The position numbers and the translations under genes are program-made. Shown here one piece after another: positions 29,076 through 34,579 of a stretch of DNA of 34,579 nucleotides. The notes beneath the pieces were generated by a model, which did no database searches, was not told the DNA's origin, and saw nothing but the letters and a program-made list of their open reading frames with translations. This DNA is from a virus (taxonomy: Duplodnaviria > Caudoviricetes): the IMG/VR virus record IMGVR_UViG_3300032225_000083, positions 1 through 34,579 of that record. The stretch is one strand, 5' to 3'. Numbering within the stretch: position 1 is the first letter of the stretch; the number at the start of each line of letters is the position of its first letter.

Positions 29076-29241
29076 TAAGCTTTTTAGCCATGCAACTACT
29101 ACACAGCCAACGCCTATTCTTTCCGTTTGCAATTATTTTCCAATAACCGCCTTCTGAATTTTTCTCAGTCGTGCAATTGCTACAAAATCTATTACCAGCT
29201 GGGCTTTTTAATGCAGGTTCAAATTCATCAACATTTAACAT
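29062..29241 (-). CDS. 59-aa Zn-ribbon protein (not in ORF track)
   Basis: RFCSNC...GGY...WLCSSC. Confidence 0.7.
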   Translation of the reverse strand: MLNVDEFEPALKSPAGNRFCSNCTTEKNSEGGYWKIIANGKNRRWLCSSCMAKKLNGKK

Positions 29242-29299
29242 TTGGCGTTTACTTTACTTAATTGTTATTATTGTCAAGCACTTACATAAGGAACTTAAA

Positions 29300-29476
29300 A
29301 TGATGCCTGACGATTGCTGCCTTCATTGTAACTTCGCATTATTTGAACAGGATGACATTGGTATTTGTAGGCGTTATCCCCCTAGTGTAATACTTGAAGA
29401 TGAAGATTTATCCTGCACCCACCCACTAATCTTACATGAGGATTGGTGCGGTGAATTTAAACGAAAGGTAAATTAG
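29300..29476 (+). CDS. Small Cys-rich metal-binding protein
   Basis: CLHC...CRRYPP...WCGEF; TAAGGA RBS supports ATG 29300. Confidence 0.75.
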   Translation: MMPDDCCLHCNFALFEQDDIGICRRYPPSVILEDEDLSCTHPLILHEDWCGEFKRKVN

Positions 29477-30439
29477 ATGGCAGCCGCAACTTGTACTGAT
29501 GAAGAATTTATCCAATTATGGAAAGAAACGCAATCCCCCGCAGAAATAGCTAAAATTTTACAAGTTGACTTACGCAATGTTTATCGCCGTAGAGTCACAA
29601 TCGAAAAAAACCATCAAATAGAACTTACAGTAAACACTAAAAAATCACCAACGTTTAACATAACTTATCCAGGTAACGGCGTTCGCGCCACGGTTGAAAT
29701 AGATCATGGAACAATCGTCGTTGCTTCAGATTGCCATTACTGGCCTGGTCATGTAACCACAGCTCACAAAGCATTTGTAAAAGTTATCGAAGCAATATCT
29801 CCTCAAATGATCGTCATGAACGGTGACGTTTTTGACGGTGCATCTATTAGCCGCCACAATCCTAATGGTTGGGCGACAACTCCTACAGTAAAACAAGAAC
29901 TGGACGCTTGCATAGAACGTTTAACAGAAATAGAAAATGTTGCTAAAAACGCTAAACTTCATTGGACCATGGGAAATCATGACATGCGTTTTAATACTCG
30001 CCTAGCATCTCAAGTAGGATCCGCTTGGCAAGGCGTACAAGGTATGAATCTAACAGACCATTTTCCTCGTTGGAAATTTAGCACTTCAATAATGGTTAAC
30101 GAAAATACAATGATTAAACATCGTTGGCATAATGGCATTCACGCCACCTATAATAATATTTTGAAATCTTCTGTGTCGTTTGTTAGTGGGCACTTACACA
30201 GTTTAAAATGCCTTCCTTTCAGTAATTATCATTCGACTTTGTATGGCGTAGATACCGGAACTTTAGCTGGTATTGATGATGAATCGTTTGCATACGCTGA
30301 GGATTCACCTAAAAACTGGCGTTCTGGGTTTGCTGTTTTGACATATGACGAGGGGATACTTTTACCGCCGGAACTATGTCAAGTTTTGGACGAAGCAAAG
30401 GGTAAATGTTATTTCCGTGGATCAGTTTTTTACGTTTAA
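29477..30439 (+). CDS. Calcineurin-like metallophosphoesterase with N-terminal HTH-like segment
   Basis: SDCH, NGDVFD, GNHD, GHLH motifs. Confidence 0.9.
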   Translation: MAAATCTDEEFIQLWKETQSPAEIAKILQVDLRNVYRRRVTIEKNHQIELTVNTKKSPTFNITYPGNGVRATVEIDHGTIVVASDCHYWPGHVTTAHKAFVKVIEAISPQMIVMNGDVFDGASISRHNPNGWATTPTVKQELDACIERLTEIENVAKNAKLHWTMGNHDMRFNTRLASQVGSAWQGVQGMNLTDHFPRWKFSTSIMVNENTMIKHRWHNGIHATYNNILKSSVSFVSGHLHSLKCLPFSNYHSTLYGVDTGTLAGIDDESFAYAEDSPKNWRSGFAVLTYDEGILLPPELCQVLDEAKGKCYFRGSVFYV

Positions 30440-30516
30440 AAAGTCATGCAAATGCCACAAGTTGCAGCTATTATTTGTGGGCAGTTCCCTACAACCTGTT
30501 GCTTGGAGTAAATAAA

Positions 30517-30738
30517 ATGGCAATTATTATTGATTACGAAAACAAACTGATTTACGTTGATGACTCGTTTGAAGTTGTGCAATACGAAGATGAAGATTTT
30601 GATTATGACGAAGATGACGGCACATTCTTTGACGACGAAGGTAACGAATACTGGTACGACGAAGAAGAAGATATCACTTACATCTACGACGAAGAAACAG
30701 ATGACTGGTACGAATGCGATGAAGATGTAGATTGCTAA
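30517..30738 (+). CDS. 73-aa hyper-acidic protein
   Basis: 33/73 residues Asp/Glu; GGAG RBS; terminator follows. Confidence 0.8.
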   Translation: MAIIIDYENKLIYVDDSFEVVQYEDEDFDYDEDDGTFFDDEGNEYWYDEEEDITYIYDEETDDWYECDEDVDC

Positions 30739-30740
30739 AC

Positions 30741-30763
30741 AAAAAGGGGCGAAAGCCCCTTTT
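30741..30763. terminator. Bidirectional intrinsic terminator
   Basis: AAAAAGGGGC-GAAA-GCCCCTTTT between convergent genes. Confidence 0.9.
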
Positions 30764-31489: not shown

Positions 31490-32161
31490 TTAAAATAACA
31501 ACTCCTGAGTTTTTACTTTGTAATCTGCATTGTATTTTTTTGTTTCTCCTTTAGGATAATTTTCTTTTTTATAAAGAATTTTTGATTCCAAAAACTTTTT
31601 TTGCGGATTTTTTGCACAAACAAAAATGTACCTATGTTTTCTTGATCTTTCTTTTAAATAAAAATCATCGCCAAACTTTTTCCGCATAAATTCAACACGT
31701 GGCCCTTCACAATTTCTACTTAGGCGAACAATAGTTTGCCCATGCAAATGTTCCATTCCTTTAACTGCATAGTCAGTTCTTTTTGCTGATAACCCAGTAT
31801 AAATAAAATTACAGGCTTGATAGACATAACCAACATGGTTTTGTTCAATGTCTGCATAACTAACTACAATTGAAGGTTTAGGAAGCAATTTCAAACTTTT
31901 AGAAATTAACAAACTGGCACAATTTTTTTTATCTGAATCAATACATAATCTATTTAATTCCAAAACTAAATTGGATAATTCTTTGCCGGCAACTCCATTT
32001 CTTAAAGCTGATGATGATGGCGTCCCATATGTAACAACGCCAATTAATAAGTTTTCATCGTAAAGACCAAAAGCATAAGAAATACTAGGAATTCTTTTTG
32101 CGTAATGTTTATATAAAAGCCATGGTTCAGCCTCTACTTTTTTAATTGGCAAAACTCTCAT
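31490..32161 (-). CDS. Mom-family (GNAT-fold) DNA adenine modification protein
   Basis: KHY, GVVTYGTP, LELNRL, VVSYAD..HVGYVYQACNFIYTG, KHRY. Confidence 0.8.
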   Translation of the reverse strand: MRVLPIKKVEAEPWLLYKHYAKRIPSISYAFGLYDENLLIGVVTYGTPSSSALRNGVAGKELSNLVLELNRLCIDSDKKNCASLLISKSLKLLPKPSIVVSYADIEQNHVGYVYQACNFIYTGLSAKRTDYAVKGMEHLHGQTIVRLSRNCEGPRVEFMRKKFGDDFYLKERSRKHRYIFVCAKNPQKKFLESKILYKKENYPKGETKKYNADYKVKTQELLF

Positions 32162-32220
32162 GCCACCTTCCTTATCTTCTCTGCAATACGTTTATGCCGG
32201 TATTCTTCGCTGCTATTCAT
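32158..32220 (-). other. Chimeric 20-codon mini-ORF / recombination scar
   Basis: MNSSEEYRH + KRIAEKIRKVA; duplicates 31467-31484 and 32777-32794. Confidence 0.8.
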
Positions 32221-32761
32221 AAATTGCTATTGTTTCATTTTGCTTTGGAACAATTAACCCAAAATCATTTATAAATAACGAACTTGTTTGGTATCTATAA
32301 ATATTTACCGTTCTTTTGCTTGATTCTTTCCAGGTATTTTTATGGCTAATACCTTTTCTTTCACCAATTTTTACCCAACCCATTTGTTTCCAGAAAAAGT
32401 TACTTGCTAAATCATCAGCACACCCACAAGCAAAATCTTCTCTACCCACTAAATTACCGTGACTAATAGCGGCAGATAACAATGCTTTGCCTCTTTCAAT
32501 TAATCTTGCATCTTCTTGAATACATATTTGGTTGCACTTAGATACTTTACCGTAACTAAACATTGCAAATCCAACCAAATCATTATTTTCTACGCATACA
32601 AAAATTTTATCGTTGCAAGTTGTACTCCATCTTTTTCCAGTCTTATGACCAGTAATAGCAGCTTCATAGGCAGGGCTTGGTATAAATCCTAACGACAAAC
32701 TTTCTTTCTTAGATAAAGAAATTATGTAAGGTATATCCTCAAGTTTTGCATTTCTAATCAA
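32213..32761 (-). CDS. GNAT-family acetyltransferase
   Basis: IRNAKLEDI, LVGF, QICI..AR...GKALL, SNFFWKQMGW. Confidence 0.85.
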   Translation of the reverse strand: MIRNAKLEDIPYIISLSKKESLSLGFIPSPAYEAAITGHKTGKRWSTTCNDKIFVCVENNDLVGFAMFSYGKVSKCNQICIQEDARLIERGKALLSAAISHGNLVGREDFACGCADDLASNFFWKQMGWVKIGERKGISHKNTWKESSKRTVNIYRYQTSSLFINDFGLIVPKQNETIAIYE

Positions 32762-33123
32762 GCCAATGTCCTAATTTTCTCTGCAATACGTTTACGCAAC
32801 TCGCTAAAGCTTTCGCCTGGTAACGGATTAACGCCAACCTCCCTAGCCTTAGCCATAGTCAGCTGTTCGTCGCTATACCACGGCAGCGCAGGAGGTTTCT
32901 TTTCCTGCATATCAAGTTCATCTTCCCAACGGCCTTGATTTAACCAAGTGCTTGCATGAGGAATGAATTCTGTATCCGTTTCTTTCAACCGCCAGTATTT
33001 AATATGAACTGGCAACGCTTCAAACGCAGCTTCTTGTTCATCTTTAGTCATGCGCTCCCAAATCTTTTGAGCAACACGCTTAGATACTTTTCGCGGATAA
33101 AGTTTCCAGAACTCGTCGAACAT
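32758..33123 (-). CDS. Stand-alone phage replication-protein C-terminal domain
   Basis: FDEFWKLYPRK.....A...W and FIPHASTWLNQGRWEDE motifs; no N-terminal HTH. Confidence 0.75.
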   Translation of the reverse strand: MFDEFWKLYPRKVSKRVAQKIWERMTKDEQEAAFEALPVHIKYWRLKETDTEFIPHASTWLNQGRWEDELDMQEKKPPALPWYSDEQLTMAKAREVGVNPLPGESFSELRKRIAEKIRTLA

Positions 33124-33590: not shown

Positions 33591-33639
33591 GCATTTTCTA
33601 CAGTTTATTTTTTTTGTTTTAATTTTGGAATAGGACAAG

Positions 33640-34009
33640 ACAATTAGGTGGTACACACCCAATTTAGCCACTTGCTTCAGTAAAGTCGGAAAGTAAAGTC
33701 TTGCAAGCTACTACACCCTAAGGACTACGTTCAATTTCCAGAGCGACAATTTCGGATTGCCTAGCCGCCATACCACCTGTTTTGCTCTGTTCCTGTGATA
33801 CCCGTAGTAAGTTCACGCGCTGTCTTGTCAGTAGGCGCATAGGTTTTATTGGTGGCAGCCCCTACAAGGCTCTCTGCTAACGCGACCAGTACGGTCTAAA
33901 CGCAAAAAAGCCCTTTAGTCTTGGCTCTCATACGTGTAACGGCACGTTCCCATAAAGGTAGAGAACCAAAGCTAAAAGGCTTTGGGTTTGTCAATGCCGT
34001 TACATAGAC
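33640..34009 (-). ncRNA. Putative large structured non-coding RNA
   Basis: No ORF of 60 aa or more; many helices with G-U wobbles on the minus strand; upstream promoter. Confidence 0.65.
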
Positions 34010-34015
34010 GTAGCA

Positions 34016-34044
34016 ACATTAACACAAGTAAAAAAAAGCCTCAA
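34016..34044 (-). promoter_or_regulatory. Promoter for the ncRNA
   Basis: TTGAGG-17-TAATGT with extended -10 TG. Confidence 0.6.
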
Positions 34045-34081: not shown

Positions 34082-34300
34082 TTAAATTTCAGGCCAAATG
34101 TAATACCAATTATCTGGAAATAACATTTTCCTAGTAATTTTGCCTCGCGTTTGTTTTTCTATTTCTGCCGCTATGTAAACGCGCTTGTCAGTTGGTATCC
34201 CATACTTTCGCCACATACATACCGCTGGAGGGCTAATTTTTAGCTCTTTAGCTATAACTGTAGGCCCACCTAATAAATCAATAAGGTCTGAATCTGTCAT
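34082..34300 (-). CDS. Cro/YdaS-like HTH transcriptional regulator
   Basis: LGGPTVIAKELKISPPAVCMWR..GIP...WPE. Confidence 0.85.
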   Translation of the reverse strand: MTDSDLIDLLGGPTVIAKELKISPPAVCMWRKYGIPTDKRVYIAAEIEKQTRGKITRKMLFPDNWYYIWPEI

Positions 34301-34391: not shown

Positions 34392-34559
34392 ATGACTAAT
34401 CAACTTATGGATGAAATCGAGCAGCAACTTGATGCGGTACTCTGGAAAATAGAAAAACTTTTAGAACCTGACGAAATATCTCTTATTCGCTGGGCGTGCG
34501 GCAAATCATCTTATACAACTAAGGATCAAAATGTTAATTTCGACCACTCAACAATTTAA
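34392..34559 (+). CDS. 55-aa hypothetical early protein (not in ORF track)
   Basis: TAAGGA RBS; MTNQLMDEIEQQLDAVLWKIEK; overlaps start of the SSB-like gene across the junction. Confidence 0.7.
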   Translation: MTNQLMDEIEQQLDAVLWKIEKLLEPDEISLIRWACGKSSYTTKDQNVNFDHSTI

Positions 34560-34579
34560 TAGCACTAAAGAATTTAAAA
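34479..34579. repeat. Right copy of terminal direct repeat
   Basis: Matches 1-101 with 6 substitutions. Confidence 0.95.

Follow-up and report, generated by a model that had tools for sequence, protein, structure and literature searches.

ColE1 RNA II combines a promoter, a structured unterminated transcript with alternative folds, an A/T tract and a controller of ~100 nt with variable loops. Its origin works by an R-loop, RNase H cleavage and Pol I, and the controller is an antisense RNA (RNA I) of the opposite strand. GOLLD and ROOL are known as large ornate RNAs of mobile elements. The accessible parts of the literature describe several further systems. Origins of phage T4 pair a promoter with an A/T unwinding element that lies downstream of it and contains an R-loop (PMC3016281), and RNA-based prophage origins exist (PMC7157519). 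Gifsy-1 IsrK has a short terminated and a read-through form with complementarity inside the leader region and lies downstream of a Q-like gene (PMC4825925), and the plasmid motifs ARRPOF, PAGEV and GEBRO, 223-349 nt long, are tied to replication regions (PMC5737381). The DNA analysed here, record IMGVR_UViG_3300032225_000083 (34,579 nucleotides, called the window), carries a non-coding gap between its cro gene (34082-34300) and the next ORF (33541), which a first-pass annotation had read as a single RNA of ~370 nt. We show here that the RNA element in this gap (34009-33630, minus strand, ~380 bases) consists instead of two modules, a leader and a core (Table 1). The element, as a predicted transcript, belongs to a family of phage RNAs that is real, uncatalogued, strongly covarying and equipped with a coded leader; its function is most likely that of an origin.

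The window is the record of a P22-like podovirus (portal PF16510, terminase, capsid) with a CheckV completeness of 100%. Its ends (1-110 and 34470-34579) are near-repeats with few mismatches, hence a full circular genome is probable. Polymerase A, a tyrosine integrase, a Q-like antiterminator and an SF2 helicase found no match in the window, and its sole replication-type gene encodes a 121-aa protein. A conserved protein-coding frame is absent from the core: the lengths of 41 homologous cores fall into all three classes modulo 3 (19/13/9), and a stop-free frame is present in 11/41. ARAGORN called no tRNA or tmRNA gene in eight loci including the window region, and no plus-strand promoter or terminator indicative of an antisense transcript was found in 33630-34010, in a scan that missed the leader promoter too. 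Elsewhere in the window, a plus-strand block with a metallophosphoesterase and two small genes (29171-30760) breaks up the operon of the minus strand, and a bidirectional terminator lies near 30745. A Mom-like DNA modification gene lies next to a GNAT acetyltransferase gene (31490-32761), and relatives carry varied modification genes there.

Table 1. Features of the RNA locus and of the associated genes in the window.
Feature	Position	Strand	Details
Cro-like gene	34082-34300	minus	upstream of RNA element; PF14549 P22_Cro, E 7e-8; phrog_35
Intrinsic terminator of cro transcript	34059-34030	minus	overlaps next promoter
Predicted sigma-70 promoter of RNA	34044-34016	minus	TTGAGG-17-TAATGT; -35 34044-34039, -10 34021-34016; putative function
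Predicted transcription start	G34009	minus	7 bases past TTGAGG-17-TAATGT
Leader module, 106 nt	34009-33904	minus	5' hairpin 34009-33990, long stem 33983-33907, U-run 33909-33904
Leader kissing-loop pseudoknot	34004-33995 with 33944-33935	minus	10 Watson-Crick pairs, hypervariable centre
Core RNA, subtype A, ~265 nt	33894-33630	minus	ends in conserved CCUAU (33634-33630)
Core domain 1	33888-33840	minus	P1 33888-85/33853-50, P2 33871-68/33860-57, PK1 33864-61/33843-40
PK2, long-range pseudoknot	33829-33822/33641-33634	minus	compensatory change in 6/8 pairs
PK3 pseudoknot	33808-03/33729-24	minus	6/6 pairs with compensatory change
Helix P5	33789-84/33744-39	minus	5/6 pairs with compensatory change
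PK4 pseudoknot	33778-72/33652-46	minus	98.6% paired; 4/7 pairs compensatory
3' hairpin	33664-56/33650-42	minus	mutually exclusive with PK4; candidate switch
A/T-rich tract	33629-33591	minus	directly after core; candidate unwinding element or UP element of next promoter
Separate promoter for downstream genes	33590-33561	minus	TTGACG-18-AATAAT
Stand-alone C-terminal domain of phage replication initiator, 121 aa	32758-33123	minus	phrog_270 positions 179-262 of 383
Stand-alone winged-helix gene	1847-2083	plus	phrog_4973, weak HTH_39; possible other half of split initiator

The cro terminator and the overlapping promoter with a start near G34009, both proposed earlier, were found again, and a -10-like box (at least 3/6 matches) stands at about equal distance in 40/40 leaders, most of them with TTG at -35. 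These leaders are 40 of 51 pattern matches, one of the 51 being a chance match. The long stem and the terminal U-run make the leader terminator-like, resembling an intrinsic terminator. The loop of the 5' hairpin and the apical loop of this stem pair with each other. This kissing loop and three pseudoknots of the core had been missed in the earlier fold. At least eight perfect self pairs form in 39/40 leaders, with 17 distinct central codes, and 112/1560 non-self combinations reach eight kissing pairs. That a perfectly paired code changes so fast between close relatives suggests that specificity is under selection, by analogy with plasmid incompatibility; neutral compensatory drift may be the alternative. 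Exact matches to the code are the two leader strands only, and no second genomic target was found. Late genes as targets of the code were considered (10 near matches versus 2.6 expected) and rejected, as the motif is equally frequent in genomes with other codes. Like Gifsy-1 IsrK and the P4 seqA/CI leaders, the A/B elements (the two subtypes described below) are predicted to have short terminated and read-through forms, with complementarity inside the leader region. In contrast to IsrK, P4 seqA-CI and C4 leaders, they have no Rfam match and no second genomic target, and in most loci an RNA core, not an ORF, is controlled.

Leader and core are separable, because insertions and other cores occur after the leader. 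In some copies a third structured module, a long hairpin with conserved ends, lies between the two (L003:1905-2022, L013:178-348, L017 ~1785-1948, L046 upstream of 1151), with no Rfam match at gathering (L003, L013, L017) or at E 0.5 (L046). An ORF of ~115-145 codons in the same place in L243, L256 and L288 likewise indicates that the modules are separable. The same leader precedes two further non-coding cores (L283 after 2568; L285 ~2390-2477) with no Rfam match, and the 5' domain of the L285 core is weakly shared with subtype B (E 0.002). Genome G010 (L498/L499) has two leader matches and one core.

For the core, 41 of 50 full-length subtype A sequences were aligned, nine near-duplicates being left out; pairwise identity in a set similar to these is 47-99%. 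The fold comprises 56 pairs in 10 helices, with 96.5% of cells paired and 37 pairs changed on both sides, and 0/500 shuffles paired as well, with slid partners pairing at 34-46%. As this structure was derived from the same sequences, a tree-based null of our own (not R-scape; 40 simulations, 28,920 pairs) was run in addition. Nine pairs exceed it at E <0.05, all of them canonical and located in P2, P5, PK2, PK3 and PK4, among them 33870/33858, 33871/33857 and 33874/33854 (domain 1) and 33823/33640 (PK2). Covariation among homologues, which the first-pass annotation had named as one of its checks, is strong. The folding energy of the region by itself is marginal, with a z of -1.77 and 3/100 shuffles equally good, a weak argument when taken alone. 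Conserved G-U pairs and cUUCGg loops, which occur in 15/41 cores on the minus strand and in 0/41 on the other, indicate an RNA of the minus strand; the earlier statement that imperfect pairs are G-U on this strand holds. In places, unpaired bases of the core are invariant. The earlier reading as a large, strand-specific structured RNA outside any Rfam family is supported by the Rfam scan and by covariation, for a predicted RNA.

All nine helices listed previously are present at their coordinates. The pseudoknot GCCACC/GGUGGU that had been proposed with them has to be replaced, as it contains C-A at one pair in 24/41 rows and another pair is unpaired in 16/41. The true partner of GGUGGU (33777-33772) is ACCACC (33652-33647), with 98-100% of rows paired and compensatory changes. 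The helix GACC/GGUC is paired in 93-100% of rows, but it shows no compensatory change, was part of the search pattern and overlaps a better helix, UGGU/ACCA. The hairpin at 33642-33664 is real and competes with PK4: a local hairpin occupies at least four of the seven PK4 bases in 32/41 rows, divergent rows of different sequence included. This is the pattern expected of a two-state switch or of a folding intermediate.

Profile sorting yielded 52 distinct cores of subtype A, that of the window, and 61 of subtype B (113 in total), in addition to 106 copies of the Betaproteobacteria-1 RNA ("C"). The loci come from one protein scan and from pattern scans of viral and metagenome contigs, so that the counts are minimum values and carry the bias of these patterns. 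By sequence comparison, subtypes A and B are one family: iterative search merged them, and the same helices and pseudoknots occur in the same order in B. A model built from B alone matches window 33894-33703 at E 3.5e-4, and the B-only nhmmer profile missed the window at E 1e-5. Each of 14/14 genomes fetched has one core. In Rfam, the region drew three weak matches that stayed below gathering; the window as a whole had no match at gathering, and 12 related loci had none at E 0.5. A blastn search of 50,697 phage records returned only short chance matches for subtype A and one weak Manatee Spring match for subtype B, and one A and one B query found no homologue in 72,556 plasmids. One scan of genome contigs for host or prophage copies gave four chance matches, the subtype B model matched none of 151 genomes of one class (a scan with no positive control), and a search with the cro protein led to two distant loci, neither with the RNA profiles. 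Large structured motifs of mobile elements such as ARRPOF, PAGEV, GEBRO, GOLLD and ROOL are similar in kind; A/B differ from them in having no Rfam match and, for the queries used, in being absent from plasmids. Six family motifs did not occur in the accessible part of the Fremin 2023 supplements (PMC10690425), and part of the family may be among the 10,006 unnamed candidates that the accessible part of this study reports (PMC10690425). A literature search, with most subscription papers outside its reach, returned no description of the A/B family and no discussion of the Betaproteobacteria-1 RNA. A subtype B core is present in the GenBank phage MW202674.1 (5135-5382; L493:1889-2136), where the annotation has two small hypothetical proteins on the opposite strand instead. 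An HNH endonuclease gene starts at the RNA 3' end in a few B and C loci (L305:3181-3684, L306, L427, L465, L489).

The closest counterpart in position is the Betaproteobacteria-1 RNA (RF02932), which like A/B is found after cro and before the same stand-alone initiator domain, or after primase. It also often stands behind the same kind of leader, lacks a 3' terminator and has an A/T-rich flank and a long-range closing helix. The two RNAs differ in size (~190 nt versus ~265 nt) and, by eye, in topology, and profiles of A/B and Betaproteobacteria-1 loci do not cross-match at E 1e-5. The RF02932 covariance model has no match in the window at E<=5 or gathering, nor in the A/B loci, and it matches four related loci (L018-L021). 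The Rfam model covers 120 of ~190 conserved bases, and ~680 viral stretches match the core pattern of the Betaproteobacteria-1 RNA. The cultured Acidovorax phage AP1 (L534, OM049504.1, 11856-11979) has an unannotated Betaproteobacteria-1 RNA directly after its primase gene.

Past the core the DNA is rich in A/T, with an A+T content over 60 bases of 0.73 in A (locus background 0.56) and 0.60 in B (0.49). A promoter pattern follows within 150 nt in 16/44 A and 21/58 B loci (37/102; control rate 2-3%), and a terminator pattern within 120 nt in 1/44 A, 0/58 B and 0/68 C loci with enough flank, the latter scan having no positive control. Since the terminator is missing, the flank is A/T-rich and a promoter pattern follows, the simplest prediction is that the core acts in cis as part of a run-on transcript, or that it is cut out. 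The ORF after the core frequently begins 8-19 bases further on in O-type phages, and transcription would therefore run through at these loci. We propose, with a probability of roughly 0.4, that the element is in cis an RNA-primed (R-loop primer) replication origin that uses host enzymes, its predicted transcript starting at its own promoter. Most likely, the RNA stands in for a protein part that is absent from the phage. Most transcripts would stop at the leader after ~106 nt, and read-through would make the core. The core fold, PK4 or local hairpin, would then decide if, within the A/T tract, the 3' end remains annealed to the template in an R-loop; host RNase H and Pol I would trim and subsequently extend the core RNA. 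Loading of the host helicase would fall to the stand-alone initiator domain, bound to the displaced strand, and the short leader RNA might act in trans on nascent leaders that carry its own code, as a means of copy control or of excluding kin.

An R-loop primer origin fits best because a predicted unterminated transcript enters A/T-rich DNA, a new promoter follows, the 3' end has a candidate switch, the element is single copy and it is tied to initiator halves; a missing terminator with a new promoter past the core is expected if the transcript is consumed. The idea fits this phage, as its complete genome lacks polymerase A, integrase and Q and has only the C-terminal domain of an initiator. 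Predicted for A/B are the same parts as in ColE1 RNA II and T4 R-loop origins, namely a promoter, a structured transcript with alternative folds that by pattern scan runs unterminated into an A/T tract, and a ~100-nt controller with variable loops. In contrast to ColE1, the putative controller is on the same strand and not antisense, and the RNA has four pseudoknots. The origin or pre-primer analogous to ColE1 RNA II that had been suggested before thus suits this phage as an origin, but there is no sequence likeness: four profiles against NC_001371 gave a best E of 0.47-0.95.

The protein at 32758-33123 is putatively an ssDNA-binding helicase loader. Its AlphaFold model is confident (pLDDT 87.9); Foldseek returned nothing at E<=0.001, the best fold match (Z 6.0, rmsd 1.6 over 42 residues) is not a clear one, and Atlas language-model neighbours (Phg_2220_C, T4 gp59, DnaD and DnaT at 0.82-0.89) are leads only. 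When loci were chosen by the stand-alone initiator domain alone, the RNA was found upstream in 24/24 testable loci (A 11, B 9, Betaproteobacteria-1 4); four of the 28 chosen loci end at a contig edge 404-958 bases upstream, and one of the 24 was scored via another locus on the same contig. MW202674 also fits this tie. In G024 and G032, subtype B has as its neighbour a second C-terminal domain of the O type, stand-alone as well but unrelated to the first (phrog_678). By place, 33 of the 113 A+B cores adjoin cro or the first stand-alone domain, 17 a DnaB-like helicase gene, 26 a gene for an SF2 helicase, primase or ParB, and two the second domain; 10 lie in other early regions and nine among late genes, 14 are unassigned and two too short. 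Overall, a cro/initiator, helicase, primase or ParB module adjoins 78/111 A+B loci with flanks. Polymerase A was found in 0 and an integrase in 1 of 51 larger records, 32 of which are at least 90% complete. The RNA is not confined to the replication-initiator slot named in the first-pass annotation: the same family also occurs with a full O-type initiator and DnaB-like helicase, beside SF2 helicases and in late regions.

Several observations count against the origin. In seven A genomes (G005-7, G010-12, G015), an intact RNA is preceded by genes for a full initiator of 212-235 aa (with DUF1376 in four), a primase zinc domain and a DnaB-like helicase, and three of the seven have iteron-like repeats (at least three copies), with none in the window. 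The 9/113 late cores lie after Q, before terS, after terL or among head genes. A lone winged-helix gene is present in 7/7 A/B genomes with the stand-alone domain, hence a split initiator is possible; no match to the gene reaches threshold in nine O-type A genomes and in seven Betaproteobacteria-1 genomes with the stand-alone domain. To these we add the predicted run-through in O-type phages, a flip of GC3 skew across the RNA in 0/6 O-type genomes (a weak test), the missing plasmid homologue and the missing likeness to ColE1.

A rather unlikely alternative is that the element is a cis RNA of the put type, which binds the elongating host RNA polymerase, confers resistance to termination and replaces N or Q, with the leader as a timing attenuator that releases this activity late. 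Q-like phrog_127 was found in 0 of the 51 larger records, as expected for a replacement of Q. The RNA is on the terL strand in 28/29 genomes, mostly 0.6-9.6 kb upstream of terL, an arrangement that fits antitermination and a lambdoid replication operon equally. Like HK022 put, the A/B RNA would act in cis, follows cro in a lambdoid layout with no terminator after it, and belongs to phages that lack Q; in the window, the terminator at 30745 is a real one between RNA and late genes. HK022 put binds the zinc domain of the polymerase beta-prime subunit and suppresses terminators. HK022 putR lies ~270 nt downstream of PR, and put RNAs are ~70 nt with two stems, according to the accessible part of PMC9378689. 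The ~265-nt core, in contrast, is nearly four times longer and pseudoknotted, has its own promoter and leader, and occurs as one copy instead of a putL/putR pair. A put-like function would accord with an RNA independent of replicon type, also found before terS and inside head clusters, but it leaves the new promoter past the core in 37/102 loci unexplained, three copies stand directly behind a Q-like gene, and in 5/13 genomes the stretch ahead of terL lacks a terminator on the same strand. For O-type genomes, strong terminators in the interval from RNA to terL were rejected as support for antitermination: of the six strongest that were read, five fall within a single nuclease ORF, and the sixth looks coding as well.

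The RNA moves as a cassette between genome positions and replicon types and has no fixed protein neighbour, and since its neighbour genes vary, its partner is probably a host machine. This would also suit an ornate RNA acting in trans, cut by a nuclease from the run-on transcript, which oligomerises or binds a host factor as decoy, scaffold or counter-defence in the manner of GOLLD and ROOL. The compact fold with long-range pseudoknots that lock both ends, and three different cores behind the same kind of leader, point the same way, yet 101/102 A+B loci lack a terminator and the strong tie to stand-alone initiator domains would go unexplained; on balance we consider this rather unlikely as well. 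Very improbable is a ribozyme, mobile element or single-stranded DNA structure in place of a regulatory or priming RNA. The invariant unpaired bases, the HNH gene abutting the 3' end in few loci and the exclusively Watson-Crick kissing pairs of the leader would agree with it, but the conserved G-U pairs and strand-specific cUUCGg loops point to RNA, Rfam gave no ribozyme or intron match in the window and related loci, and there is a single copy per genome.

Returning to the RNA-primed origin, a wider and more tentative proposal is possible, namely that, in phage origins of a widespread class, origin recognition passed from the initiator protein to an ornate RNA. At least twice, the O-type initiator would have shrunk to its helicase-loading half beside the RNA. 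Unrelated cores (A/B, Betaproteobacteria-1 and two more) would be interchangeable, and a same-strand leader with a variable kissing code would set copy number and exclude kin with no repressor protein.

A strongly covarying family of large phage RNAs with four pseudoknots that is absent from Rfam 15 matters whatever its function, and it lends itself to structure probing and cryo-EM. The orphan motif Betaproteobacteria-1 gains a context, as it fills the same slot as the A/B RNA, and since the cultured Acidovorax phage AP1 carries it, the function is open to testing. As an antiterminator, the RNA would join HK022 put as a second and far larger example of antitermination by RNA only. If it is an origin, it would explain how many small phages replicate without polymerase, helicase or full initiator, and it would offer protein-light replicons with programmable compatibility codes.
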